The notes under the pieces: generated by a model
Databases searched by the model: none
What the model saw: only the letters and a program-made list of their open reading frames with translations
Told to the model about the DNA's origin: nothing
Shown here: positions 1 to 10,791 of the stretch, one piece after another
How the letters are laid out: every line of letters begins with the position of its first letter
Numbering within the stretch: the first letter of the stretch is position 1
Program-made: the position numbers and the translations under genes
Origin: a virus
Taxonomy: Duplodnaviria > Heunggongvirae > Uroviricota > Caudoviricetes
Length of the DNA stretch: 10,791 nt
IMG/VR virus record: IMGVR_UViG_2802429244_000006
Span: 1-10,791 of that record
Strand: one strand, 5' to 3'

Positions 1-49
1 GATTTCCCACGCGAATTTTCATCGCTTTCACCATCAGCTCCATGCTCAT
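1..49 (-). CDS. Hypothetical protein, N-terminal 16 codons only (gene runs off the window start)
   Basis: ATG at 49-47 (minus) with GGAGG at 60-56, 6 nt upstream; ATG overlaps the TGA of the upstream gene (ATGA). Translation MSMELMVKAMKIRVGN... Confidence 0.4.
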   Translation of the reverse strand, partial: MSMELMVKAMKIRVGN

Positions 50-270
50 AACACACCTCCCAGGCGTTTAAACATTTTTCCGGACTGAAACACCGCCAGT
101 GGATAACTGATGGTGTAGTTACGCCCCAGTAATTCACACACAACTTTCTGGCTTTCGGTGCTGACCAGGCAAACCCGCAGAACGTGACCGTTGCTGGTGG
201 CGAACCACTGCCCCACACGGGGGCAACGGTTGTATCGGTGATACAGCGAATTCACAACGCGACGAATCAT
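46..270 (-). CDS. Hypothetical phage protein (74 aa)
   Basis: ORF-track ORF; ATG at 270-268 overlaps upstream TGA (ATGA); GGAGG 7 nt upstream (282-278). No recognisable domain. Confidence 0.5.
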   Translation of the reverse strand: MIRRVVNSLYHRYNRCPRVGQWFATSNGHVLRVCLVSTESQKVVCELLGRNYTISYPLAVFQSGKMFKRLGGVL

Positions 271-282
271 GGACGCACCTCC
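265..282. repeat. Copy 1 of an 18-nt gene-junction repeat (aatcatggacgcacctcc); 17/18 identical to 456..473
   Basis: Direct comparison of the two stretches; on the minus strand each copy carries GGAGG, the upstream stop and the downstream ATG. Confidence 0.8.
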
Positions 283-461
283 GCTGTTGTGATGTATTTA
301 ACCGGGCTGCCTTTCATTGCGATGGTTTCACACATCTCCGCGGCTTTACGTTCCGCTGTTTTCCTGGATTTATAGCGGCGGTGCCAGACAGATGTATCCG
401 TGCGAACTGATACATCGTTTCTGTATTCCGTTGTAGAAATAATAATTTCGTAACTAATCAT
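267..461 (-). CDS. Hypothetical phage protein (64 aa from the internal ATG; the ORF track extends to 476)
   Basis: ATG at 461-459 overlaps the TGA of the 493-aa ORF (ATGA) and has GGAGG 8 nt upstream (474-470). The upstream ATG at 476 has no SD. Translation MISYEIIISTTEYRNDV...AEVRP. Confidence 0.45.
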   Translation of the reverse strand: MISYEIIISTTEYRNDVSVRTDTSVWHRRYKSRKTAERKAAEMCETIAMKGSPVKYITTAEVRP

Positions 462-473
462 GGACGCGCCTCC
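456..473. repeat. Copy 2 of the 18-nt gene-junction repeat (aatcatggacgcgcctcc)
   Basis: 17/18 identity with 265..282; same relationship to stop/start codons on the minus strand. Confidence 0.8.
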
Positions 474-1939
474 CATTGATTACGGCGGAAAGCGGTGTGA
501 TTCAGGTGGGTTTCAGCTTCACGGAATGCTTCAATACAGCTCTCGTAGTACCGCATTGTGCGCAGACTTAACCCAAGCTGAAGCATCATCAGGCCATCAA
601 GGGTGATGTAATAACCACGCAGGGAGTCACCATAGATGTGATAAGTGCCCGGTATGAAATTGCGGGTAAAAAAATCGCGCGAGCAGTTCAGATACTCGAT
701 TTTGTCGACGATGTTCTGGTGCATGCGCTTGAAGTGGCAGGCAACATGCAGGGAGAAAATAACGGCCTTGCCGTTGACAACTTCAATTTTCAGGTATGGG
801 GAAGTTGGGACTGTAGCCATGATGGCAGCCTCCTTGAGCAGTGAAAAACTTCCACCACCGGAGCTGCGAAACTCATGGGTGGTGAACTGAACAGGGTTCG
901 CAGTACCGGCGCTCAAGGAAACCGGCGAGCCTTTCGGCTCCCCTGCCCAGCCCACCATAATTCTGGCATGCGCGAGCATGGACGATAAAAAAGACGCTGG
1001 CGCGTCGTATATCGCCTCGAGCAATTCCGGGCTGCGACCCCCGGCACCCGCTTTATAAGGTGCGGAGACAGTGTAACGTCCCGAAATTGCAGAATCAATA
1101 TTTAGGCTTGAAACATTCATATGCTTACTGGTATTTTTACTAACGCAAATGTTCTTGGATGTTACTGGCTTACTTCTCTGTGAAGTTGCCTTTACCAACG
1201 TTGAGCGAGCCGGGTCACTACCCGGCTTTTTTTCACCGCTGCCAACCAATAACCTGAAATAACCCCATTTTCGGGTGATACCAGCGAGTCCCTCGCGGTT
1301 CTGCTTCCTCCATAACCCGATAAAAGCAGCCATAAACGGTTCCACAGCAACAATTGCGCGACGTGACAACAATCCGTCCGGCGTCATGAACTCATGGGTG
1401 TCTGTAGGAATTTGATAGGCGTTCACCAGATTGCGGCATTTATCATCTGACAAACCGGTTTTTGCTTTCAGTTGGCGATATCCGGCATAGCCCTCACGAA
1501 TGGTACCCCTTTTGATTTGCTCAACTGTTTCGGCAACATGGCTGACTTTTTCTTCCACCTGAGTGATCCGTTTCTGCTGACGAACGGCTTCAAGAGCCAT
1601 CGCAGCAACCATTTCGATTTCGCTCATTGGCTTACGGATCTGTTCTTCCAGTTCGCGCCAGCGATCTACCAGGCGAGCAGTGAATTCAGGACAGAGCTGT
1701 GCGACGACAATGATGCTGTCGCGCTTACCTTGTTCTCCTTCAAACAGGTAATGCTCATATTGAACTTTAAAACCTAAGTTATTGATTTTCTCGGAAACAG
1801 CCATTGGCGGTTTCCGGATGATGTTTTTAGCAACCAGGCGTTCGATACTACGTTTAACATCTGAGTGCTGACTACCCACCAGCTCTGCGATCTCAACGCT
1901 GGTCATGGATGCTTTATCGTTAAAAATTGCGGTGTTCAC
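458..1939 (-). CDS. Rha-family phage regulatory protein (antirepressor-like), 493-aa composite ORF; possibly a fusion or read-through of two ancestral genes
   Basis: GTG start at 1939-1937 with AAGGAGG 5 nt upstream. N-terminus (MTSVEIAELVGSQHSDVKRSIERLV...) fits the Phage_pRha pattern. Residues about 230-370 are low-complexity (S/K/G/P-rich) and overlap an AT-rich stretch and a plus-strand terminator. A distinct C-terminal region starts near MATVPTSPYLKIEVVNGK. Confidence 0.65.
   Translation of the reverse strand: MNTAIFNDKASMTSVEIAELVGSQHSDVKRSIERLVAKNIIRKPPMAVSEKINNLGFKVQYEHYLFEGEQGKRDSIIVVAQLCPEFTARLVDRWRELEEQIRKPMSEIEMVAAMALEAVRQQKRITQVEEKVSHVAETVEQIKRGTIREGYAGYRQLKAKTGLSDDKCRNLVNAYQIPTDTHEFMTPDGLLSRRAIVAVEPFMAAFIGLWRKQNREGLAGITRKWGYFRLLVGSGEKKPGSDPARSTLVKATSQRSKPVTSKNICVSKNTSKHMNVSSLNIDSAISGRYTVSAPYKAGAGGRSPELLEAIYDAPASFLSSMLAHARIMVGWAGEPKGSPVSLSAGTANPVQFTTHEFRSSGGGSFSLLKEAAIMATVPTSPYLKIEVVNGKAVIFSLHVACHFKRMHQNIVDKIEYLNCSRDFFTRNFIPGTYHIYGDSLRGYYITLDGLMMLQLGLSLRTMRYYESCIEAFREAETHLNHTAFRRNQWEARP
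1208..1233 (+). terminator. Rho-independent terminator-like hairpin on the plus strand, inside the minus-strand Rha ORF
   Basis: Stem GCCGGGT (1209-1215), loop CACT, stem ACCCGGC (1220-1226), then TTTTTTT (1227-1233). Upstream flank is not A-rich, so it is directional for the plus strand. Confidence 0.5.
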
Positions 1940-1976
1940 TGATACCTCCTTACGGATAAATTATTGGGATCACGGT

Positions 1977-2723
1977 TCAGCACTTCTCAGTTACGCGCTT
2001 TTTCCAGAGCCATGCATCCCTATAAGCAGCCTCGATCCCATGGCATATCCGCATATCCTGAAACCAATGCTTCCGTTCCCATATCTGCCAAGATCGAGGT
2101 TTAATGCGATCGCTGATGCCTGTGATGGAGAACATAGCCAGTACGGGTACTTTCAGGCGTCTTCCTTTCTGGATATGCTTACGCCAGTCATTGCGAAGAT
2201 TTGCCCGCATGCTGAAATAAGCACCAACAGGAAATGCAACAAGAAATGCCGCTACCTGAACAAAAAGGAGTCGCCAGAAATTATGGGAATCATCTGGAGT
2301 GAGTTTGTTCTTCTGTTCAATACCAAACCGCGCCTTGTTACCTTCATCTGGACGGTTAGTGCTTTTGGACTTGGCGCCTGGCTCGGACACTGGCTTGCCA
2401 AAAATCGAGATAAGCGGAAAGAGTTCAATGCCGTCGCTGATGAATTGTTCCTGATCCTTGACGCCTTCCGCGAGGGTTGCCGAGACGGAAAACGGGATAT
2501 GCCACATATATCCAGAGACGATTTCAGAAGACTGCGCCCTCACCTGAGCAGCAGACAAGCACGAAGTTACCAACAAGCCGTAGATAACTTTTTTAACGCA
2601 CTGAAAGCTAGTGAGCTCTATGAAGACAGGCGGATTGTTCCGGTTATCAAAACTCCCGCAGAAATTCTTCCCAGCCTTAACACGCTGATTAAGTTTCTGA
2701 AGCATCGCTAAGCACTGTGACAT
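1977..2723 (-). CDS. Hypothetical protein (248 aa) with one predicted hydrophobic segment
   Basis: ATG at 2723-2721 with GGAGG 6 nt upstream (2734-2730), one nt after the stop of the upstream 75-aa ORF; 37 nt before the Rha gene RBS. A 268-aa ORF on the opposite strand (1905..2711) covers the same DNA, so the coding strand is not certain. Confidence 0.5.
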   Translation of the reverse strand: MSQCLAMLQKLNQRVKAGKNFCGSFDNRNNPPVFIELTSFQCVKKVIYGLLVTSCLSAAQVRAQSSEIVSGYMWHIPFSVSATLAEGVKDQEQFISDGIELFPLISIFGKPVSEPGAKSKSTNRPDEGNKARFGIEQKNKLTPDDSHNFWRLLFVQVAAFLVAFPVGAYFSMRANLRNDWRKHIQKGRRLKVPVLAMFSITGISDRIKPRSWQIWERKHWFQDMRICHGIEAAYRDAWLWKKRVTEKC

Positions 2724-2724
2724 A

Positions 2725-2952
2725 TCACACCTCCGATTGCTTACCTTGCCCCTCTTCTGTGTGCGCTAAATCAGGATGGATATACGGGATACTTGGATCC
2801 AGATGGCAGAGAATAGCTACGTCCTCTGGAACACCTCTCGTTTTCCACTTTCCAACACCTTGACTGCCACGAGGCTTTCCTTTCTTTGGGAATCTGCGGC
2901 CAATAGCGGCATTGGTTTTAAATTGAGTTTTTAATATTTCATAAAGGGTCAT
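2725..2952 (-). CDS. Hypothetical small basic protein (75 aa) in the cro-equivalent position
   Basis: First ORF leftward of the divergent region next to the CI-like gene. Weak SD. No obvious helix-turn-helix. Lys/Arg-rich centre (GRRFPKKGKPRGSQGVGKWKTRG). Confidence 0.3.
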   Translation of the reverse strand: MTLYEILKTQFKTNAAIGRRFPKKGKPRGSQGVGKWKTRGVPEDVAILCHLDPSIPYIHPDLAHTEEGQGKQSEV

Positions 2953-3063
2953 TCTTTAGTCTCACACCGGATACTCTGTTATCCAAGAATGTTAAACGCG
3001 AGAATCCAAAGTATCAAGAGATTCTGTTACTTTAGTATCAGCAGCCATGAAAGGAGAAGAAAA
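2953..3063. promoter_or_regulatory. Divergent operator/promoter region (OR-like) between the cro-position gene and the CI-like repressor
   Basis: 111-bp gap between divergent genes. Candidate leftward sigma-70 promoter on the minus strand: TTGATA (3017-3012), 17-nt spacer, TAACAT (2994-2989). GTATCA motifs at 3011-3016 and 3035-3040; the 10-mer aaagtatcaa (3008-3017) recurs at 3747-3756. Confidence 0.4.
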
Positions 3064-3720
3064 ATGAAATCTTTAGGTGAACGCCTCATCAACGCACGAC
3101 AAAAAGCTGGGTTAACGCAAGATGCGTTGGCTAAAAAAGCAGGGGTCACCAGAGTTGCAATCAGTAAAGCCGAGCAAGGCCTTACAAAAAGTTTCAACGG
3201 TGACACCCTTTTTAAAGTCGCAGCTGCACTGCAGTGTTCACCGCAGTGGCTTCAGAGCGGAGATGAAAAAGATAAGCATTGGGAAAATAATGTTAAGAGC
3301 TGCCCACAGAGAGACACAGCACACTCTTACCCTGTAATTAACTGGGTTCAGGCAGGATTATTCGCAACTGCTGGTGATGACTACAACATGTATGATCAGG
3401 ATAACTGGAGGCATTCTGTAAAATACGCTGGTGAGAGGGGGTTCTGGCTGGAAGTGCACGGAGACTCAATGACTTCGCCCGTAGGAATAACATTTCCTGA
3501 AGGAATGTCGATCCTTGTCAACCCAGATAAAGAAGTTTTTTCAGGGTGTTACGTCATCGCCAGAAAAAAATCCACCAATGAAGCAACATTCAAAAAATAT
3601 ATTTCTGAAATGGGAAAGGCGTTTCTAAAGCCCCTTAATCCACAATATCCAATCATAGAAATGGACAATGATTGCGAAATAGTAGGTGTTGTAGTTGATG
3701 CCAGGTGGGATATTTTCTGA
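3064..3720 (+). CDS. cI: Lambda-CI-like repressor (N-terminal XRE-type HTH, C-terminal LexA/S24-like autoproteolytic domain), 218 aa
   Basis: ATG 3064 with AGGAG 7 nt upstream. HTH: LINARQKAGLTQDALAKKAGVTRVAISKAEQG. C-terminal GDSM (catalytic Ser), FKK (Lys) and LNPQYP closely resemble the lambda CI C-terminal domain. Candidate Ala-Gly cleavage sites in VQAGLFATAGDD. The ORF-track start at 2989 lacks an RBS. Confidence 0.9.
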   Translation: MKSLGERLINARQKAGLTQDALAKKAGVTRVAISKAEQGLTKSFNGDTLFKVAAALQCSPQWLQSGDEKDKHWENNVKSCPQRDTAHSYPVINWVQAGLFATAGDDYNMYDQDNWRHSVKYAGERGFWLEVHGDSMTSPVGITFPEGMSILVNPDKEVFSGCYVIARKKSTNEATFKKYISEMGKAFLKPLNPQYPIIEMDNDCEIVGVVVDARWDIF

Positions 3721-3823
3721 CCAGACTCAAAACACAAAAAGAAACAAAAGTATCAAAAATCACTTGCCACACCTTGATACCTTAGTTACCATAAAACAAA
3801 GTTCGTAACTGAGGTATCATCTC
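3721..3823 (+). promoter_or_regulatory. OL/pL-like operator-promoter region with an inverted repeat GTATCAA-N17-TTGATAC (3750..3780)
   Basis: Inverted repeat arms at 3750-3756 and 3774-3780. Candidate promoter TTGCCA (3764-3769), 17-nt spacer, TACCAT (3787-3792). Shares the aaagtatcaa 10-mer with the OR-like region. Confidence 0.4.
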
Positions 3824-4240
3824 ATGATCAATAAAGCTACAACTCTTGACTGTCTTGAAGAACTGAAAAACCTCGGCAGTCTCATTACACTAATAGCCAA
3901 AGCAACGCCAGATGCTACGCTCTCTGGCGATATCGAGTCATGCGCAGGACTGGCATGGGATATGACAAATAGCATATCCAGAAAGCTATCGTCAGCAATG
4001 CTTTTACAGAACAAAAATTCTGCAATCAACAACCGTCTTCGCACCCAACGCGAAGCCTGCGGCTTAACAACCGCCGAACTCGCCAGGCTGCTCGATCTCG
4101 ATGAAGAAATTATCATCCAGTGGGAGAGCGGAGAGTGTGAACCAACCATCAGTATGCTTATCCCACTGGCAAATATTCTTGGCTGCGATCCGATGTGGCT
4201 GTTAACCGGTAAACCAACAGCAGGAGATACTTGCGCATGA
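3824..4240 (+). CDS. Helix-turn-helix (XRE-family) DNA-binding protein, 138 aa, HTH in the C-terminal half
   Basis: ATG 3824 with GAGG 9 nt upstream. HTH-like segment LRTQREACGLTTAELARLLDLDEEIIIQWESGECEPTISMLIPLANILG. First gene after the CI-like repressor on the same strand. Confidence 0.65.
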   Translation: MINKATTLDCLEELKNLGSLITLIAKATPDATLSGDIESCAGLAWDMTNSISRKLSSAMLLQNKNSAINNRLRTQREACGLTTAELARLLDLDEEIIIQWESGECEPTISMLIPLANILGCDPMWLLTGKPTAGDTCA

Positions 4241-4602
4241 AAAAGTTCAAAAACATAACCGTTCTCCATGTTGATTACTTTGATTATACAAACCCGGACC
4301 TTCTCCCGGAGGTTGTAAAAGCAATAGATGTTGCCGATATAGTGATTAGAGGAAAGAGAATTGTCAAAAACAGGCTCGCATGCACTTCAGGAGCAATGAC
4401 AGAAACAACCTCACAGCAAGATAATTACGAAGGCATTTGTCTGGAGCCTGATTCATTTGCGGTAAATGTTTATCATTTATTGCATGCAACACAGGTATTA
4501 CATATGTCCAGTAATCACGAAACGAAAATACTCGGCAGCGAAATTCTGAATTTTGCATGTGAGTATGCAAAAGCTGCTGCCGAAAAAGAATTAGCGCAAT
4601 AA
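4237..4602 (+). CDS. Hypothetical protein (121 aa), translationally coupled to the upstream HTH gene
   Basis: ATG 4237 overlaps the upstream TGA (ATGA); AGGAG 10 nt upstream. No recognisable domain. AT-rich codon usage. Confidence 0.55.
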   Translation: MKKFKNITVLHVDYFDYTNPDLLPEVVKAIDVADIVIRGKRIVKNRLACTSGAMTETTSQQDNYEGICLEPDSFAVNVYHLLHATQVLHMSSNHETKILGSEILNFACEYAKAAAEKELAQ

Positions 4603-4800
4603 CAACAAATATGCTCTGAACGTTTATTACGGTTTTATCGCCGGGGATTGTTACAACCTTTATTCACAGATGGAACTCAGTTATGACTTTCCTGAAAAAT
4701 AAGGCATCGTATAAAACTGCCTGCCTCATTGCACAACATGGAGATTCTTATCTTCATATAGCCAACCTGTATTTGCGCAAAGCATATGGGAGATAAATAA

Positions 4801-4989
4801 ATGAAAGAAAAACAACAGAACATAACACATAAAAAAGTAAGAGTGTTGCTAACCATTGAAAATGGTGAAGTAATTTACTCAAAACATCTGTTGGATAATG
4901 AATTCGTTGGCTGCATGGATACATTTCTGTGGATGGCAAAAAGAGCTGGCTACACGATTATTCCACCAGCAAAGGAGCAAACATTATGA
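4801..4989 (+). CDS. Hypothetical small protein (62 aa)
   Basis: ATG 4801 with GGGAG 8 nt upstream; follows a 198-bp AT-rich intergenic region; stop overlaps the next start (ATGA). Confidence 0.5.
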   Translation: MKEKQQNITHKKVRVLLTIENGEVIYSKHLLDNEFVGCMDTFLWMAKRAGYTIIPPAKEQTL

Positions 4990-5567
4990 ATAATTCAGAG
5001 TTCCGACCAGAAGTTACGCCACATGGCATAAAAATTGGCAATACAACCATTGATTATGTTGAGGCCGTACAGCGACTTAATAATGGTGAATACGATTATC
5101 CAAATTCACACGGTTTAAGAATCCTTCAGTGTCTTGCAGAAGCCGATGATGCCAGATTACTGGGAAGATTTTCAGTCGATATGAAAGTTACTCAATGGCG
5201 CTGGCTGTATGTGACAACGTTTATAAATGAAGAAGAAGGCAAGAACGGCACCATTGATATCCCTAACGATAACGGAACTACAGATCGCGCAGTTATTTAT
5301 AAGGGGAAGCATGGTTGCATGAGTATATACCCAGGACCACTTCGCATTGCCCTGCAGAACCATGTCGAATGGGGATTTATTGAAAAATATGGCGAAGCTG
5401 AAGGCATGGGGCGAGTTCTGTTTCTCTATCAAAAAATGCTCATCGCAGATCCTGATAATGGTTTCATTGTCTCTGCTATGGGGCGCGAAGGGCTTGAACT
5501 CCTTCTGGATGAAATGATTCATGATCTGAATACTCATGGTATGCCAGAAGCACCAGTGACACATTAA
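4986..5567 (+). CDS. Hypothetical protein (193 aa)
   Basis: ATG 4986 with AGGAG (4973-4977) 8 nt upstream; ATGA overlap with the preceding ORF. The ORF-track start at 4929 is an upstream extension without an RBS. No recognisable domain. Confidence 0.6.
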   Translation: MNNSEFRPEVTPHGIKIGNTTIDYVEAVQRLNNGEYDYPNSHGLRILQCLAEADDARLLGRFSVDMKVTQWRWLYVTTFINEEEGKNGTIDIPNDNGTTDRAVIYKGKHGCMSIYPGPLRIALQNHVEWGFIEKYGEAEGMGRVLFLYQKMLIADPDNGFIVSAMGREGLELLLDEMIHDLNTHGMPEAPVTH

Positions 5568-5612
5568 ATATTAAGAAGAATATAATTCTTTCGTTTTTTA
5601 CTAACCGTTTAT

Positions 5613-5720
5613 ATGAAAAGCAACCGTGAATTAAACAGAGTAAAACTAATTTTAATCCTTGCCACAGTGCTGATACTAACTGAAATCATTATTCTCTTTA
5701 TTGCGCTGTCAGTCGGTTAA
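5613..5720 (+). CDS. Putative small hydrophobic peptide (35 aa, one predicted transmembrane helix)
   Basis: Not in the ORF track (under 60 aa). ATG 5613 to TAA 5718-5720: MKSNRELNRVKLILILATVLILTEIIILFIALSVG. No SD, so low confidence. Confidence 0.25.
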   Translation: MKSNRELNRVKLILILATVLILTEIIILFIALSVG

Positions 5721-5743
5721 AAATATCGGGATACCACAGACCA

Positions 5744-5932
5744 ATGAGACTGTATTTCACAATAGTAATTTTACTGGCAATTATCGCATGTATTTACGGA
5801 TTACTTGTTCCGTTCCTTATATCCATGAAGGATACGATAGCAGTTATTTCTGGCTTTGCACTGGCGTTTCTGACCCCGCCCTGCATTTATGCCATTTACA
5901 AGGGGCTTTCTTTCACTAAGGATAAAAGATGA
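5744..5932 (+). CDS. Small membrane protein (62 aa, two predicted transmembrane helices)
   Basis: ORF-track ORF; hydrophobic stretches IVILLAIIACIYGLLVPFLI and AVISGFALAFLTPPCIYAIY; stop overlaps the ATG of the SPFH gene (ATGA). Weak or absent SD; alternative in-frame ATG at 5825. Confidence 0.45.
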   Translation: MRLYFTIVILLAIIACIYGLLVPFLISMKDTIAVISGFALAFLTPPCIYAIYKGLSFTKDKR

Positions 5933-6756
5933 AAAAAATTATTTTTGCTTTAGCCATTGTTCTGCCGACTATTGGCCTTGTCGGTTGCGATCGCGTTGAA
6001 CCAGGTAATGTTGGCATCAAGGTAAATAAACTGGGCGACGACAAAGGCGTCGGTGAGGTGGTCGGTGTTGGTCGCTACTGGACTGGCTGGAATACTGAAG
6101 TTTATATCTTCCCCACCTTCAAGCAAATGAAGACCTACGATGAACCGTTCAGTTTCCAGATGAGTGACGGTACAACCATCGGCTATCACATTGGCGTGGC
6201 CTACAAAGTTGATCCATCCAAAGTTACCACGGTGTTTCAGACCTACCGCAAAGGCGTGGATGACATTACAGACACCGACCTGCGCCAGAAGATCGCCGAC
6301 GCACTCAACCGACTGGCCAGCAAAATGACCACTGACAAATTTATCGACGGCGGCAAGTCTGAGCTGCTGGATGAAGCTCTTAAAGACATTCAGGCAGAGA
6401 TGACACCTATCGGTATTCAGGTAATGAGCCTCTCATATGTGGGTAAGCCGGAGTACCCGCCAACCGTTATCGACAGCATTAATGCCAAAGTCACGGCGAA
6501 CCAGAAAACCCTACAACGCGAGCAGGAAGTTAAACAGCGCGAAGCGGAAGCCAACATGTTGCGCGCGGAAGCTGCCGGACAGGCTGATGCGATTCGCACA
6601 AAAGCCCAGGCTGAAGCCGATGCTATTCGTTTACGCGGTGAAGCTCTGCGCCAGAACCCCGGTGTTATGGAGCTGGAAGCCATCAATAAATGGAACGGCA
6701 CACTGCCGCAATACATGACCAGCGGTGCCAATACACCATTTATCCAGGTTAAATAA
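5929..6756 (+). CDS. SPFH/band-7 (prohibitin/HflK/C-like) domain lipoprotein, 275 aa
   Basis: ATG 5929 with AAGGA 6 nt upstream. Signal peptide with lipobox LVGC (Cys20). Central SPFH-like region and C-terminal Ala/Glu-rich coiled coil (QREAEANMLRAEAAGQADAIRTKAQAEADAIRLRGEA) typical of the family. Confidence 0.8.
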   Translation: MKKIIFALAIVLPTIGLVGCDRVEPGNVGIKVNKLGDDKGVGEVVGVGRYWTGWNTEVYIFPTFKQMKTYDEPFSFQMSDGTTIGYHIGVAYKVDPSKVTTVFQTYRKGVDDITDTDLRQKIADALNRLASKMTTDKFIDGGKSELLDEALKDIQAEMTPIGIQVMSLSYVGKPEYPPTVIDSINAKVTANQKTLQREQEVKQREAEANMLRAEAAGQADAIRTKAQAEADAIRLRGEALRQNPGVMELEAINKWNGTLPQYMTSGANTPFIQVK

Positions 6757-6796
6757 CTTATATGCCCGGCAGGCCGCCGGGCTAAGGGAAAAGCAG

Positions 6797-7156
6797 ATGA
6801 ACACCCATAATGCCCAACCGCAAATAATGAACTATGACCCGAATCTGACGTCATGCGGACGCATGGCAAAACAAACCGTTCGATTAACTTTCGGGTTATG
6901 GGAATACCGCGAAACATTCGAAGTTACTGTCGGCGGCAATCTGACCGGGCTGGATGTTATCAGTTGCGCTATTGAAAGCCTGTACGCAACGCTGCTTTAT
7001 GAAGAAGTCGAGGATGAGCGCGATATCATAGCCACCATTAATATCGGCGGACTGGAATGCAAGGATGAAAACCTGTCCGGAGAGCTCTGGCTTGCCGGGA
7101 TGCTTATCTCAGCAGAAATTATCAGTATTGAACCCGCAACAAACATACGGCTCTGA
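6797..7156 (+). CDS. Hypothetical protein (119 aa)
   Basis: ATG 6797 with AAGGGA 7 nt upstream; in frame with the longer ORF-track ORF 6725..7156, whose start would overlap the SPFH gene. No recognisable domain. Confidence 0.5.
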   Translation: MNTHNAQPQIMNYDPNLTSCGRMAKQTVRLTFGLWEYRETFEVTVGGNLTGLDVISCAIESLYATLLYEEVEDERDIIATINIGGLECKDENLSGELWLAGMLISAEIISIEPATNIRL

Positions 7157-7187
7157 AGTTCTCACTATTCAGAGAGCAGGAGAAAAA

Positions 7188-7430
7188 ATGTTCGCTTTGA
7201 TTAATCAGGGACAGCTGTATACCGACAGTGCCGGTTACCCGGTAAAAATTATTCGCTGCATAAATAACACTGTGTTGTACAGAAGAATGGATGGGCGAAC
7301 ACAGTCGGTAAAAATAAACGATTTTAATGAACTGTTTGAACGACTCGATCACCAGGAATACCGACAAATTCTGGCAGAAACAGAACAGGAAACTCATCTG
7401 AAAAAATTACGAGCCATGAAAAGGAAGTAA
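7188..7430 (+). CDS. Hypothetical small phage protein (80 aa)
   Basis: ATG 7188 with AGGAG 5 nt upstream; in frame within ORF-track ORF 7065..7430. Translation MFALINQGQLYTDSAGYPVKIIRCINNTVLYRRMDGRTQ... Confidence 0.55.
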   Translation: MFALINQGQLYTDSAGYPVKIIRCINNTVLYRRMDGRTQSVKINDFNELFERLDHQEYRQILAETEQETHLKKLRAMKRK

Positions 7431-7433
7431 AGA

Positions 7434-7580
7434 ATGAATAAAGCGTTTGAACTATGGGTACGCCAGCGTTACGGCAATCGCTATGACCTGACGCGAGATG
7501 TTGACGGTTTCTACTGTCGTGAAATTGTGAAACGAATGTTTGAAGTGTGGTGCCACTGCCGTGGGCTGAATGTTGTATGA
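7434..7580 (+). CDS. Hypothetical small protein (48 aa, Cys-containing)
   Basis: Not in the ORF track. ATG 7434 with AAGGAAG 6 nt upstream. Translation MNKAFELWVRQRYGNRYDLTRDVDGFYCREIVKRMFEVWCHCRGLNVV. Confidence 0.4.
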   Translation: MNKAFELWVRQRYGNRYDLTRDVDGFYCREIVKRMFEVWCHCRGLNVV

Positions 7581-7588
7581 GGTGAACT

Positions 7589-7798
7589 GTGGGGCTGGAT
7601 TGCGTACCTATATCAACCTACTGCCGCAACGCAGGAGAAACGGTTGATGCCGTTAACAAACGGATACAAAGAGGAATATGGAAAGAAGGGGTACATGTAT
7701 TAAAAGTCGACGGAGTTAAAGAACGTTGGGTCGACTTAATGGAGATTACAAAATGGGCAAGAAAGAACAAGGATCACTATCTCTCCCTAGAGGAGTAA
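7589..7798 (+). CDS. xis: Excisionase-like DNA-binding protein (69 aa)
   Basis: GTG start 7589 with GAGGTG just upstream; sits immediately 5' of the integrase and overlaps it by 46 nt, as xis does in lambdoid phages. Motif KEGVHVLKVDGVKERWVDL is consistent with small winged-helix excisionase-like proteins. Confidence 0.55.
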   Translation: MGLDCVPISTYCRNAGETVDAVNKRIQRGIWKEGVHVLKVDGVKERWVDLMEITKWARKNKDHYLSLEE

Positions 7799-8925
7799 CT
7801 ATTCGCCAGCATAAAACTGGTAGCACTCTGGTTATCACTTTTACATATAAAGGGGTTCTGTGTCGGGAGCCCCTCTCCAGAATGGAAGTAAACGCGCGCG
7901 GTGTGAAGTACGCTGAGCGTCTGCTGGGAGAAATAAAAAATCAGATTATCGATGGTACCTTCGAATATGCAAAATACTTCCCCAACTCCCAAAAGCTGGA
8001 GTTGTTCGGGGGAGTGAAAAAAAACAAAAATATAAAATCTTACCTGGATGAATACCTGATTATCTGCCAGAACCGTAACCTGTCACCATCGACAATTAGA
8101 GGTTATGAAAAATGCCTGTCGGCGCTGTCAGCATTGCATAAATTTCATGTATCAGAACTGACACCTGCAGTACTAAAAAACTGGATCGCCAACAGAAAAA
8201 CAAAACTGAAAACTATCCGCAATAATCTTTCATTCCTGCGCAGCGCCATAGATGAAGCGGTGACCGATGGTTTGTTAACAATAAATCCTGTCACGCTAGT
8301 CAGCGCCAGCCGGTATCACGTATTGGACAACACACCAGGCAGTGATGATTACGAGGTCGATCCTTTTACACCAGCGGAGACGGCAGCAATCTATGACGCC
8401 TGTCATTACCCGGAATGGCGAAATCTGTTTCGCTTTGCCTTTAATACAGGACTGCGCAGCTCAGAATTGTGCGCGTTGCGCTGGACGGATATAGACTTTA
8501 TCGGCAACACCGCGCATGTTCAGACTGCAAGCGTAGTCGGGGTAATCAAAAGCACCAAAACAAAAGCCGGCACCCGCAAAGTGCAACTGAACAGCGAAGC
8601 GCTGGCGGCTCTTCAGGCACAAAAGCCCTACACGGCGCTAAAGAGCGACTTCATATTCAGCGATCCGAAAACTCGCGCTCCTTGGGCAAACGCAGATGCG
8701 ATCCGAAAAAAAGCCTGGGTACCAACCCTTAAAAAAGCTGGTGTACGCTATCGCAATCCGTACCAGACACGCCACACGTTCGCCACTCGGCACATTAGCC
8801 AGGGCGTTAACCTGTTCTGGCTTGCTGGTCAGATGGGGCATAAAGGACCGGAAATGCTGTTCAGACATTACGGCTCTTACCTTGCAGAATACGATGGAAA
8901 AACGGCGATTTCTGCAACCCCGTAA
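7753..8925 (+). CDS. int: Lambda-type tyrosine integrase (site-specific recombinase), 390 aa from ATG 7753
   Basis: ATG 7753 with GGAG 8 nt upstream (ORF track begins at TTG 7726). N-terminal arm-binding-like region resembling lambda Int; C-terminal catalytic motifs (LRSSELCALRW..., RHTFATRHISQG..., GHKGPEMLFRHYGSY) with the conserved Arg/His/Arg/Tyr pattern. Confidence 0.9.
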   Translation: MGKKEQGSLSLPRGVTIRQHKTGSTLVITFTYKGVLCREPLSRMEVNARGVKYAERLLGEIKNQIIDGTFEYAKYFPNSQKLELFGGVKKNKNIKSYLDEYLIICQNRNLSPSTIRGYEKCLSALSALHKFHVSELTPAVLKNWIANRKTKLKTIRNNLSFLRSAIDEAVTDGLLTINPVTLVSASRYHVLDNTPGSDDYEVDPFTPAETAAIYDACHYPEWRNLFRFAFNTGLRSSELCALRWTDIDFIGNTAHVQTASVVGVIKSTKTKAGTRKVQLNSEALAALQAQKPYTALKSDFIFSDPKTRAPWANADAIRKKAWVPTLKKAGVRYRNPYQTRHTFATRHISQGVNLFWLAGQMGHKGPEMLFRHYGSYLAEYDGKTAISATP

Positions 8926-9057
8926 CGGCAAAATATTTCAAAATGTTGTACAGAATCAGGACGTTATCGGGACAACAATATGTACGTAAAATGCACATAA
9001 TTCATTGTTTGAAAAAATAAATCGTTCATATTCAATAAATTGGATTAATCACGATCA

Positions 9058-9084
9058 CGGGTTCAACTCCCGCCAGCTCCACCA
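9058..9084 (+). other. ssrA: 27-nt copy of the 3' end of tmRNA (ssrA): T-arm 3' side plus acceptor 3' strand ending CCA; interpreted as the att core at a prophage/island junction
   Basis: CGGGTTCAACTCCCGCCAGCTCCACCA matches the E. coli tmRNA 3' terminus as I recall it (...GCGGGTTCAACTCCCGCCAGCTCCACCA). Sequence immediately 5' (cacgatca) does not match ssrA, so this is a fragment, not a complete gene. Confidence 0.75.
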
Positions 9085-9118
9085 CTTTTTAGTTGTTTGA
9101 AGTACAATGAAGTCTACT

Positions 9119-9152
9119 AAGCCCGCACAGCACAAGCTCTGCGGGCTTTTTT
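9119..9152 (+). terminator. Rho-independent terminator
   Basis: GC-rich stem AAGCCCGCA / TGCGGGCTT followed by a run of six T (9147-9152); 35 nt downstream of the ssrA-like CCA end. Confidence 0.7.
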
Positions 9153-9249
9153 ACGTCTATTGTCGTCCAGTGAGAATTGCTGAGAACTATCACTTATGGC
9201 ACCCTGAATGGGACCCACTAAGAAGGGTCCAAAAACCGAGGGTCCCAAA

Positions 9250-10479
9250 ATGGCAAAAATCGCTAAGAAGCTCACTGACACTGAAATCAAAAGCACCAAG
9301 CCAGCCGACAAAGAAATCAACTTGTTTGACGGAGATGGTTTGATACTACGAATCGCTCCCCTCTCGAAAGGAGGAAAGAAGAATTGGTATTTCAGGTATG
9401 CAGTGCCAGTCAGTAAAAAAAGAACCAAAATGAGCCTTGGGACATATCCTCACCTTACACTGGCAAGAGCCAGAGCCTTACGAGATGAATACCTTTCCTT
9501 GCTTGCTAATGGCATTGATCCCCAAGTTCATAACAACGATAAAGCTAATGCCTTAAAGAATGCTACTGAACACACTCTCCAAGCCGTGGCAAGGAAATGG
9601 TTGGATGAGAAGGTAAAGACCTCAGGTATCTCACAAGACCATGCAGCAGACATCTGGCGCAGCTTAGAGAGAAATGTCTTTCCTGGCCTGGGTAATGTCC
9701 CTATCAATGAGATCCGACCTAAGCTCTTAAAACAACACCTTGATCCTATTGAGCAACGAGGCGTATTGGAAACTCTACGCCGCATCATTTCACGTCTGAA
9801 TGAAATCTTCCGGTGGGCAGCCACTGAAGAACTTATTGAGTTCAATCCGGCTGACAACCTTGGTCAAAGATTCAGTAAACCAAAAAAGCAAAATATGCCT
9901 GCCCTTCCCCCAAGCGAATTGCCAAGGTTTATGGAATCTTTGACGAATGCGTCAATCCGGCTGGAAACACGTATGCTAATTGAATGGCAATTGTTGACAT
10001 GGGTTCGTCCGGGTGAAGCCGTTCGCGCAAGGTGGTCTGATATTGATACAACCAACAACATTTGGAACATTCCTGCTGATTTTATGAAAATGAAAAAGCC
10101 TCACAAAGTTCCTTTGAGTAAAGAAGCTTTGCACATCCTTGAATTAATGAAATCAATAAGTGGGCATAGAGAATGGGTTTTCCCCAGCATTAAAGCGCCT
10201 CTTAATCATATGCATGAACAAACAGCCAACGCAGCTATTATCCGAATGGGGTTTGGAGGCGAACTTGTAGCTCACGGTATGCGTTCGATTGCAAGAACAG
10301 CGGCAGAGGCGTCTGGTAAGTTCAGAGCTGAAGTTCTTGAGGCAGCACTCGCCCACTCTAAAAAAGATGAAATTATCGCAGCATACAATCGTGCAGAATA
10401 TCTGATAGAACGACAGAGTTTGATGCAATGGTGGAGTGATTACGTTCAAACTCAAAGAGCTAAAGCTATCGCTGCTTGA
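9250..10479 (+). CDS. int: P4-type (IntA-like) tyrosine integrase, 409 aa from ATG 9250
   Basis: ATG 9250 with GAGGG 7 nt upstream. N-terminus MAKIAKKLTDTEIKSTKPADKEINLFDGDGLILRI fits the P4-integrase arm-binding N-terminal pattern. Conserved blocks DIWRSLER, GVLETLRR, KKQNMP, ARWSDID, HGMRSIART, EAALAH, AYNRAEYL, MQWW. The ORF-track start at 9208 is an upstream extension. Confidence 0.9.
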   Translation: MAKIAKKLTDTEIKSTKPADKEINLFDGDGLILRIAPLSKGGKKNWYFRYAVPVSKKRTKMSLGTYPHLTLARARALRDEYLSLLANGIDPQVHNNDKANALKNATEHTLQAVARKWLDEKVKTSGISQDHAADIWRSLERNVFPGLGNVPINEIRPKLLKQHLDPIEQRGVLETLRRIISRLNEIFRWAATEELIEFNPADNLGQRFSKPKKQNMPALPPSELPRFMESLTNASIRLETRMLIEWQLLTWVRPGEAVRARWSDIDTTNNIWNIPADFMKMKKPHKVPLSKEALHILELMKSISGHREWVFPSIKAPLNHMHEQTANAAIIRMGFGGELVAHGMRSIARTAAEASGKFRAEVLEAALAHSKKDEIIAAYNRAEYLIERQSLMQWWSDYVQTQRAKAIAA

Positions 10480-10791
10480 CTGATACAGGGGATTAGCAAG
10501 AAGGATAGGGATAGCCTGGAAAGCCCATATACTGACGAATGCCCCTTAGCTAAAACATTCTCATCGGATTGAAAGCGCACATGTACATAAAACCAGTATA
10601 AAAACATAAGGTTATATAACTAAACTTTGATACGTATGCTTCCATATGTTTTTAGTGTTTGATATGGTGAAAAAAAGATACTGATGTTTTTTTATGCTTT
10701 CATTGCTTGTTTCCTTAGTGGGCTACCATATGGATTTCTTTGAAAAAACTAATGCTGACAAAAATTCAATAGGTTTTACCTATCAAGATTA

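Follow-up and report, generated by a model that had tools for sequence, protein, structure and literature searches.

A two-gene cassette for an SPFH lipoprotein and a small two-helix membrane protein, carried by a phiP27-like prophage and by diverse phages and bacteria

An SPFH lipoprotein gene overlaps the gene for a small membrane protein

We analysed a 10,791-nucleotide stretch of viral DNA (positions 1 to 10,791 of IMG/VR record IMGVR_UViG_2802429244_000006; hereafter the window), which forms the left arm of an Escherichia prophage, a lambdoid one like phiP27, and we focus on a cassette of two overlapping genes within it, one encoding a lipoprotein with an SPFH (Band_7) domain and the other a 62-residue membrane protein that we call the partner. 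Over the segment 5560–6800 the DNA is 98.1% identical to phage phiP27 and 98.2% identical to E. coli UMNF18. An earlier reading of the window, made from its letters only (the sequence-only reading), had placed three open reading frames (ORFs) here, the additional one encoding a 35-residue hydrophobic peptide upstream of the partner, and all three lie where it had put them. The features of the locus are the following.

5613..5720, plus strand: 35-residue hydrophobic ORF of doubtful coding status (evidence: ORF only)
5744..5932, plus strand: predicted two-helix inner-membrane protein of 62 residues, the partner (evidence: phrog_1130, ratio of non-synonymous to synonymous polymorphism [pN/pS], synteny)
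5918..5932, plus strand: coupling junction, with an AAGGA Shine-Dalgarno sequence at 5918–5922 within the 3′ end of the partner gene and an ATGA start/stop overlap at 5929–5932
5929..6756, plus strand: SPFH/Band_7 lipoprotein, 275 residues (evidence: Pfam, PHROGs, AlphaFold2)
6764..6782, plus strand: GC-rich hairpin GCCCGGC-AGGCC-GCCGGGC, 8 nucleotides past the SPFH stop codon, with no T tract

The product of 5929–6756 matched Pfam Band_7 (PF01145) over residues 22–208 with 109.2 bits against a cutoff of 23.6 (E 3e-31) and matched phrog_200 'lipoprotein' at E 2.7e-114, and it is 100% identical to protein L05 of phiP27. It begins with the signal peptide MKKIIFALAIVLPTIG, the lipobox LVGC at residues 17–20 (with the cysteine at position 20) and then Asp-Arg, and it continues through the SPFH domain (about residues 21–177) and a long helix (178–242) to a conserved C-terminal segment, KWNG-LP. 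The N terminus fits the lipobox pattern [LVI][ASTVI][GAS]C with Asp at +2, and the protein is thus predicted to be lipidated, in agreement with the sequence-only call of an SPFH lipoprotein. Cys20 is conserved in at least 90% of 102 aligned homologues, and when we scanned 120 close enterobacterial homologues, 98 of the 111 with a locatable lipobox cysteine had Asp at +2. In Enterobacterales, Asp at this position is a signal for Lol avoidance and retention in the inner membrane. The anchoring solution varies within the family, in that ~15–20% of distant relatives have a plain transmembrane anchor in place of the lipobox cysteine; the proteins of Ruegeria phages DSS3_MAL1 and RpAliso, for example, start with a plain N-terminal hydrophobic anchor and have no lipobox cysteine. 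Some relatives are labelled 'putative serine protease' or 'transposase fusion protein', but we found neither domain and take the labels to be legacy similarity notes.

The partner matched phrog_1130 'membrane protein' at E 2.5e-23 and has two hydrophobic helices. Both termini are predicted to be cytoplasmic (N-in/C-in), and the short loop of about 9 residues on the periplasmic side bears the motif P-x-L-I-S-x-x-D/S-T (here VPFLISMKDT); the loop is neutral and the C-terminal tail, KGLSFTKDKR, is basic. The partner TGA overlaps the ATG of the SPFH gene, and the AAGGA lies 6 nucleotides 5′ of that ATG, so that the ATGA coupling to a two-helix membrane protein described in the sequence-only reading is borne out. 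Polymorphism among alleles from related loci marks both genes as genuine and under purifying selection: in-frame pN/pS was 0.13 for the SPFH gene (54 alleles) versus 2.1–2.6 in the other two frames, and 0.23 for the partner gene (29 alleles) versus 1.4–1.6 off-frame.

In the 35-residue ORF a hydrophobic stretch of 24 residues comes after a charged N terminus. The ORF lacks a Shine-Dalgarno sequence, a PGAP annotation and any family match in Pfam, PHROGs or PADLOC. Its pN/pS was 0.52 versus 0.83–1.2 off-frame, its variable sites were distributed 10/4/9 by codon position, with no third-position excess, and its start codon is changed from ATG to ATA in one relative (L025). The sequence-only reading had counted this ORF as a member of the module, but we found it in only 49 of 80 near-identical cassettes, with unrelated DNA replacing it in the others, and no counterpart turned up beside the pair in P88, RCS47, N4, SSU5 or a Salmonella prophage, carriers that are described below. 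Co-occurrence thus holds for the partner and SPFH genes, which stay together, but not for the 35-residue ORF. Searching Rfam at a permissive threshold returned no RNA family in 5560–6800, which leaves without support the idea that the ORF marks an antisense RNA or a type I toxin; a minus-strand promoter-like match at 5712–5685 was within chance expectation and was set aside. We regard the ORF as lineage-specific, weakly supported and unproven as a gene, and place it outside the module.

The SPFH protein has the predicted architecture of ring- and cage-forming protomers

An AlphaFold2 model of the SPFH protein, built from a 102-sequence alignment, reached a mean predicted local distance difference test score of 82.3. 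It contains an N-terminal helix corresponding to the signal peptide, a beta-rich SPFH domain, a continuous 65-residue helix spanning residues 178–242 and a less confident C terminus. When the model was compared with the PDB using Foldseek, the top matches were HflC/HflK, prohibitin and erlin (E 1e-14 to 1e-12). Essentially the whole chain, over 240 to 300 columns, aligned to chains of HflK/C, prohibitin 1/2, erlin 1/2 and stomatin (E 1e-14 to 1e-11), and the SPFH-plus-helix parts of flotillin, QmcA and major vault protein were matched as well, with all matches falling between E 1e-14 and 1e-7. The matched proteins all form large rings or cages. As modelled, the elements of an SPFH protomer are present, namely a membrane anchor, an SPFH domain, a long coiled-coil helix and a C-terminal segment, and both the profile search and the structure prediction that had been proposed as checks on the SPFH call came out in its favour, the former with a significant match and the latter with an HflK/C-like fold.

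At the sequence level the closest known proteins in a profile-to-sequence search were HflK, QmcA and prohibitin (E 3e-6 to 1e-4). The NCBIfam equivalog models, by contrast, scored the protein far below their cutoffs (hflC 25.9 versus 134.4 bits; hflK 23.1 versus 159.4 bits). Because it failed both equivalog models so widely, we assign it to a distinct SPFH subfamily rather than to the orthologues of HflK or HflC.

The partner is conserved across phyla and is sometimes fused to the SPFH protein

The pairing of the two genes is obligate. Among the close viral loci that include upstream sequence, 79 of 79 have the partner with the identical overlap, and the 4-nucleotide overlap recurs in P88, the Salmonella prophage and Luteibacter, with 8 nucleotides in N4. 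The family also extends well beyond phages. Scanning protein clusters at 50% identity with HMMER gave 3,019 clusters with E ≤1e-3 and 228 with E ≤1e-30, most of whose members are 270–300 residues long with a lipobox cysteine. Species-representative genomes with the family include Enterobacterales, many Dyella and other Rhodanobacteraceae, Pseudomonas, Leptospira, Bacteroidales, Saprospirales, Dependentiae, Sphingomonas and one cyanobacterium, and in Dyella, Leptospira and Bacteroidales the pair, too, is chromosomal.

To recognise partners at this distance we used the pattern P-x-[LMF]-[ILV]-S-x-x-[STD] within a two-helix ORF ending at the SPFH gene. At 80 species-level loci the partner was separate in 62 and fused in 3, with 5 further loci showing variant N-terminal two-helix extensions. 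Besides the two residues fixed by the pattern, the partners share Leu at +2 (87%), Ile at +3 (80%), Val at +11 (86%) and Gly at +14 (93%). All tested partners matched phrog_1130, including those of Dyella, Luteibacter and a Dependentiae bin (E 1e-5 to 2e-7), and eight diverse partners from phages and bacteria had no significant match in Pfam.

In the natural fusions, two helices are followed by a basic linker, a third helix, a lipobox cysteine and the SPFH domain. We found this arrangement in 12 of 150 cluster representatives and in 5 of 104 profile hits; one of the fusion genes is chromosomal, beside rpsP and the gene for RNase R. The topology of the fusions is consistent with itself and with the positive-inside rule as applied to the 62-residue partner. 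The natural occurrence of the two proteins as one polypeptide speaks for their working together physically, and the fusions are the strongest evidence that they do. That the small protein is a dedicated partner of the SPFH protein, as the sequence-only reading had supposed, is thus strongly supported.

A few loci depart from the usual arrangement. In Shigella flexneri (L092) and E. coli ECMA0423 (L093) the partner is gone, leaving an orphan SPFH gene that is 96% identical; the DNA just 5′ of that gene (about 3750–3990 of these loci) resembles, judged by eye, what we take to be an IS1 end. Pseudomonas phage TL has, upstream, a gene for a protein with one helix only, at its C terminus, and the crAss-like phage cr128_1 has a membrane protein gene downstream of the SPFH gene.

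The pair behaves like a mobile cassette of temperate and virulent phages

Searching with tblastn, we found the SPFH protein in 383 of 50,697 phage records, the matches including N4-like, rV5-like, Bruynoghevirus, phiCbK-like, crAss-like and Lak phages. DNA of the SPFH gene was present in 570 of 5,426 complete E. coli genomes (~10%) and in 224 plasmids, of which 219 were typed as non-mobilizable; the plasmids listed are mostly ~90–117 kb, which is the size of phage-plasmids. Stx2-converting phages also carry the cassette. The pair is widely mobile and behaves like a two-gene cassette that is shared by lambdoid, P2-like, P1-like and SSU5-like temperate phages and by the virulent phages N4 and PVP-SE1; virulent carriers of the family include N4, PVP-SE1-like phages, phiCbK and Bruynoghevirus.

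Genes of PHROG 1130 and PHROG 200 are adjacent, co-oriented and overlapping in the window, and in N4, SSU5, P88 and the Salmonella prophage they are likewise adjacent and co-oriented, with an overlap or nearly so. In the P2-like phage P88 the pair is gp11 (67 residues) and gp12 (93% identical to the SPFH protein of the window), with an ATGA overlap, within the early operon. SSU5 genes 061–062 lie 3′ of a recombinase gene, and their SPFH protein is 80% identical. N4 gp19 and gp20, annotated 'membrane protein' and 'lipoprotein', overlap by 8 nucleotides and are flanked by gp18 and the gp22 endonuclease gene, gp20 being 62% identical. The Salmonella prophage has the pair between the genes for an Enc34-type single-stranded-DNA-binding protein and DNA polymerase A. 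In the P1-like phage-plasmid RCS47 (3731–4775 of its locus) the partner is a 78-residue ORF, unannotated in RefSeq, that overlaps the lipoprotein gene by 20 nucleotides; among P1-like phage-plasmids the pair has upl/plp on one side and, on the other, a tRNA gene that ban follows, and this is the site where reference P1 carries tciABC. PVP-SE1 (locus 2145–3379) has the partner as gene 116 and the SPFH gene as gene 118, with gene 117 (54 residues, no hydrophobic stretch) between them. Related phages of Klebsiella, Raoultella, Proteus and Cronobacter have, next to the partner gene, a feature annotated 'transcriptional regulator', and their partner and SPFH matches are ~220 nucleotides apart. In the phages that we examined, the neighbours of the pair are early, replication or recombination genes.

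The sequence-only reading did not recognise the arrangement as a described system and thought it unusual. The evidence does not bear this out as far as the genes go: the same pair is found in phiP27 (L05 and an unannotated upstream ORF), N4, SSU5 and P88, nothing essential differs among these in family, order and overlap or few-base gap, and the PHROG families already exist, so that the window adds one more copy of genes that were already known. The conserved synteny carries no known function, and we found no functional study of phage SPFH lipoproteins, of N4 gp19/gp20 or of phiP27 L05 in the literature. Nor did we find there that the small membrane protein had been recognised as an obligate partner, one that is conserved across phyla and in some cases fused, or that a lipid-anchored, periplasm-facing SPFH subfamily with a partner other than NfeD had been noted.

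The cassette lies in the early-left operon

Because of the gene order around it (given in the final section), we place the cassette inside the early-left operon, which from 3824 via the cassette to the excisionase and integrase genes is probably driven by a pL-like promoter just upstream of 3824. We found no promoter-like match in the spacer 5′ of the partner gene, the nearest one (5756–5784) falling inside the partner ORF, and no plus-strand terminator-like match between pL and the cassette. The promoter and terminator scan yielded none that belongs to the cassette, its counts being at or below shuffle expectation.

Downstream of the SPFH stop codon, the first 70 nucleotides fold with a predicted −21.9 kcal/mol. 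The hairpin at 6764–6782, which fails the terminator consensus scan, probably marks the 3′ boundary of the cassette. Stable hairpins or clear intrinsic terminators occur 3′ of the SPFH stop codon in P88, SSU5, N4, the Salmonella prophage and PVP-SE1, with a weaker fold only in RCS47, and in N4, SSU5 and the Salmonella prophage the pair is flanked on both sides by clear terminator-like hairpins. A promoter and a terminator of the insert's own, on either side of it, are the mark of a classical moron.

A split SPFH protomer as a working model

These results lead us to a model in which the cassette encodes an SPFH protomer split over two polypeptides and with a general role in infection, a model that we find plausible while stopping short of calling it probable. 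The 62-residue protein would form a helical hairpin in the inner membrane, its two termini cytoplasmic and its conserved PxLISxxS/DT loop on the periplasmic side. The SPFH protein would be exported, lipid-modified at Cys20 and left facing the periplasm, and it would be kept in the inner membrane because of its Asp at +2. Taken together, the Asp at +2, the relatives with plain anchors and the fusions argue that the SPFH domain lies on the periplasmic face of the inner membrane, the side on which HflK/C also has it. Translational coupling would yield roughly equal amounts of the two proteins, which may then build a ring or cage like those of HflK/C, prohibitin and erlin, with SPFH domains and the long helix forming the wall and the hairpins of the partner forming the transmembrane palisade, which HflK/C builds from the N-terminal helices of its own SPFH subunits. 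With transcription coming from the early-left (pL-type) operon, the cassette would be expressed after infection or induction and not in the lysogen, a timing that we infer from its position in the operon and from the lack of a promoter of its own in the upstream spacer. During lytic development the cage would enclose part of the inner membrane or a host client within that membrane. Its role would probably be one of membrane-protein quality control, access or integrity, not one in the lysogeny decision as such, and because the pair is conserved in virulent phages and at ordinary chromosomal sites we favour a general, basic activity that is useful to virulent and temperate phages alike.

Several observations sit less comfortably with this model. 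Ring formation is argued by analogy with the structural relatives, and the pL promoter call is a consensus match. No partner was recognisable in Sutterella, Sphingomonas, the crAss-like phage cr128_1 or Pseudomonas phage TL. N4 gp20 has Tyr at +2 and many distant relatives have Ser or Thr there; the Asp rule is one of Enterobacterales, and some family members could be outer-membrane lipoproteins. Finally, when we clustered the neighbours at the 80 species-level loci, no gene besides the partner was conserved across lineages. One shared neighbourhood was confined to 24 loci of Dyella and related Rhodanobacteraceae, where the pair is divergent from genes for a BlaI-type repressor (Penicillinase_R, E 3e-25) and a BlaR1-type M56 membrane peptidase (E 1e-49), which occupy about 950–3400 on the minus strand with the SPFH gene at 4001. 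Through these neighbours the pair could have a link, in that one lineage, with the sensing of envelope stress or with a membrane protease.

Comparison with known systems

The best-understood relatives of the SPFH protein are HflK and HflC of E. coli, which act with FtsH. The likeness lies in the SPFH fold, the long wall helix and the C-terminal segment, and in a bulk that is predicted to project from the inner membrane into the periplasm. Identity is only ~17%, a lipid anchor here takes the place of the N-terminal transmembrane helix there, and one SPFH gene with a 62-residue hairpin protein stands in place of two SPFH paralogues. SPFH–NfeD operons (QmcA–YbbJ, stomatin–STOPP) likewise have the SPFH gene in an operon with a small membrane partner. 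We nevertheless rejected an NfeD-type identity for the partner, because the absence of significant Pfam matches among the eight diverse partners leaves no NfeD/OB-fold domain. QmcA faces the cytoplasm, unlike the SPFH lipoprotein described here, which is predicted to be exported.

The system of Bacillus subtilis YdjI (SamI) is similar in that an SPFH protein has small dedicated membrane partners. YdjI is reported to rely on its partners, YdjG/YdjH and PspA, and to act in the handling of membrane stress (PMC8581546; bioRxiv 10.64898/2026.02.06.704340). It differs in that YdjI is cytosolic, that the partners are unrelated to phrog_1130 in sequence as far as compared, and that no PspA-like gene lies near the cassette. 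We also considered a two-component spanin and rejected it, since the pair is in the early-left operon, the lipoprotein is an SPFH protein of 275 residues and the periplasmic loop of the partner has only ~9 residues.

Other explanations

The alternative closest to hand is that the ring mimics HflKC and tunes the choice between lysis and lysogeny, by capturing or shielding FtsH or by displacing HflKC, and so alters the turnover of a CII-like activator in the way that lambda CIII, from the same operon, does. This idea was put forward earlier for SPFH genes of phages, together with the reservation that such genes are also present in obligately lytic phages (PMC8540360; PMC4936722), and the sequence-only reading had also raised lysis–lysogeny control. 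HflK, HflC and prohibitin are indeed the closest solved relatives by sequence, the predicted periplasm-facing topology matches that of HflK/C, and the first gene after pL (3824–4240) matches the 'CII-like regulator' family phrog_4836 at E 2.3e-39. The family is also found, however, in obligately virulent phages and at ordinary chromosomal sites (N4, phiCbK, Dyella), where there is no lysogeny decision to be made, its scores are far under the HflC and HflK cutoffs, and there is a single SPFH gene rather than a K/C pair. Because of the virulent phages and non-prophage chromosomes a lysogeny-specific role is unlikely, and we give the mimic of HflKC only a small chance. We rate somewhat higher, while still considering it unlikely, a role in superinfection exclusion or envelope protection, in which an early, periplasm-facing ring would block the DNA entry of later phages or keep the inner membrane from collapsing too early under the action of holins, abortive-infection pore formers or envelope stress. 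Early membrane proteins and lipoproteins are the usual agents of exclusion, as exemplified by T4 Imm and Sp, T5 Llp, phi80 Cor and P22 SieA; such a function would serve virulent and temperate phages alike; the N4 pair lies directly 3′ of gp18, annotated 'superinfection exclusion, similar to P22 gp17'; an envelope-stress sensor pair of the BlaI/BlaR1 type is divergent from the pair in the 24 Rhodanobacteraceae loci; and SPFH proteins of B. subtilis are reported to take part in membrane-stress pathways (PMC8581546). Set against this, the annotation of N4 gp18 is itself a similarity note only, the chromosomal copies imply a housekeeping rather than an anti-phage role, and we found no experimental report in the literature. 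The three ORFs matched no defence model in PADLOC-DB v2 at E up to 0.1, and when neighbouring genes were included the only PADLOC matches were generic helix-turn-helix (HTH) ones, to the gene at 3824–4240. With that lack of support, and with the genes inside a repressor-controlled early-left operon, the membrane-based defence suggested in the sequence-only reading loses ground.

Two further possibilities seem to us much less probable. In one, the 35-residue peptide would belong to the module, as an additional subunit or as a small toxin or regulator that works together with the pair: its ORF, hydrophobic stretch and charged N terminus included, is intact in 21 related alleles besides that of the window. 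It is missing, however, from 30 of 79 otherwise near-identical cassettes and has no counterpart in the other phage types examined, and weak purifying selection, the absent Shine-Dalgarno sequence, the lost start codon in L025 and the want of any family or Rfam match combine to make a three-gene module very improbable. Least credible of all is a lipoprotein of lysogenic conversion or virulence that, exposed or released in vesicles, acts on the animal host as an agonist of Toll-like receptors (TLR) 1/2 to the benefit of the lysogen. Its candidate precedent, a possible member of this family, is PM0222 (Pmorf0222) of Pasteurella multocida, described as an HflK/C-like protein of 25–35 kDa from a lambda-like prophage that is found in outer-membrane vesicles and activates TLR1/2, and whose deletion attenuates virulence (PMC9872710). 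The presence of the cassette in Stx2-converting phages would fit. The vesicle location and virulence role of PM0222 nonetheless fit poorly with an early lytic inner-membrane protein: the genes lie in a repressed early operon with no promoter of their own, Asp at +2 favours retention in the inner membrane, and the family is common in virulent phages and environmental bacteria.

Returning to the split protomer, a broader and more speculative version, which we consider unlikely, is that the pair stands for an ancient and separate class of SPFH machines in bacteria, in which a cage that is lipid-anchored and faces the periplasm obtains its transmembrane fence from a hairpin protein that is a subunit of its own, and that phages of many lineages have repeatedly captured it to reprogramme a process at the inner membrane. 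Candidates for such a process are FtsH-type proteolysis, DNA entry and envelope-stress signalling. If this were so, N4 gp19–gp20 and their relatives would constitute a general device of host takeover or exclusion that has so far not been described. More narrowly, if the client proved to be FtsH or the route of DNA entry, the cassette would add a new phage mechanism of host takeover or exclusion, and if its deletion left infection unaffected, it would be an ordinary accessory gene pair. The virulent carriers include phages of the type used in therapy (N4-like, PVP-SE1-like, Pseudomonas and Klebsiella phages). SPFH cages (HflK/C, prohibitin, erlin, flotillin, stomatin) are a current topic of structural biology, with clients that are mostly unclear, and a minimal two-gene version that the cell can dispense with, in genetically tractable phages, would make a convenient model for how such cages are anchored and what they contain.

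Neighbouring genes and other signals in the prophage arm

The surroundings of the cassette in the window are as follows.

458–1939, minus strand: Rha/antirepressor region
2725–2952, minus strand: cro-like gene
2989–3720, plus strand: LexA/cI-like repressor gene
3764–3792, plus strand: pL-like sigma-70 promoter match downstream of the cI-like repressor gene (TTGCCA-17-TACCAT, 9/12, by consensus only)
3824–4240, plus strand: HTH gene with a match to a 'CII-like regulator' PHROG
Between the 3824–4240 gene and the cassette: several genes of unknown function
5744–5932 and 5929–6756, plus strand: the cassette under study (partner and SPFH gene)
6797–7156: DUF5406 gene
7191–7430: DUF4222 gene
7589–7798, plus strand: excisionase
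7726–8925, plus strand: integrase
9208–10479, plus strand: second integrase, P4-type (NF007246, 438.9 bits versus a cutoff of 434)

The first two genes after pL (3824–4602, plus strand) both matched phrog_4836 'CII-like regulator' (E 2.3e-39 and E 6.7e-4, respectively), and the first of them, at 3824–4240, also has an HTH_3 domain. A CII-type activator in the early-left operon instead of to the right of cro would, if that is what it is, be unusual for a lambdoid phage.

On the minus strand, the 493-residue open frame at 458–1939 has Rha domains at both ends, and inside it Rfam placed a C4 antisense RNA (875–962, 84.4 bits) and isrK (987–1063, 56.4 bits), also on the minus strand and both above the gathering score. 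Because both RNAs lie inside the frame, we read it as probably a read-through artefact over two Rha-like antirepressor genes that are separated by a P1/P7 immI-type C4/IsrK control region.

The longest integrase ORF overlaps that of the excisionase by 73 nucleotides, and the integrase probably starts at an internal codon; the corresponding integrase of E. coli UMNF18 is annotated as frameshifted. ARAGORN found no complete tRNA or transfer-messenger RNA (tmRNA) in the window. Just past the prophage integrase gene there are a weak match to the 3′ end of tmRNA (9039–9084, E 0.018) and a partial match to IsrM (9075–9152), with the P4-type integrase gene next after them, an arrangement that suggests a prophage at ssrA, in tandem with a CP4-57-like island.

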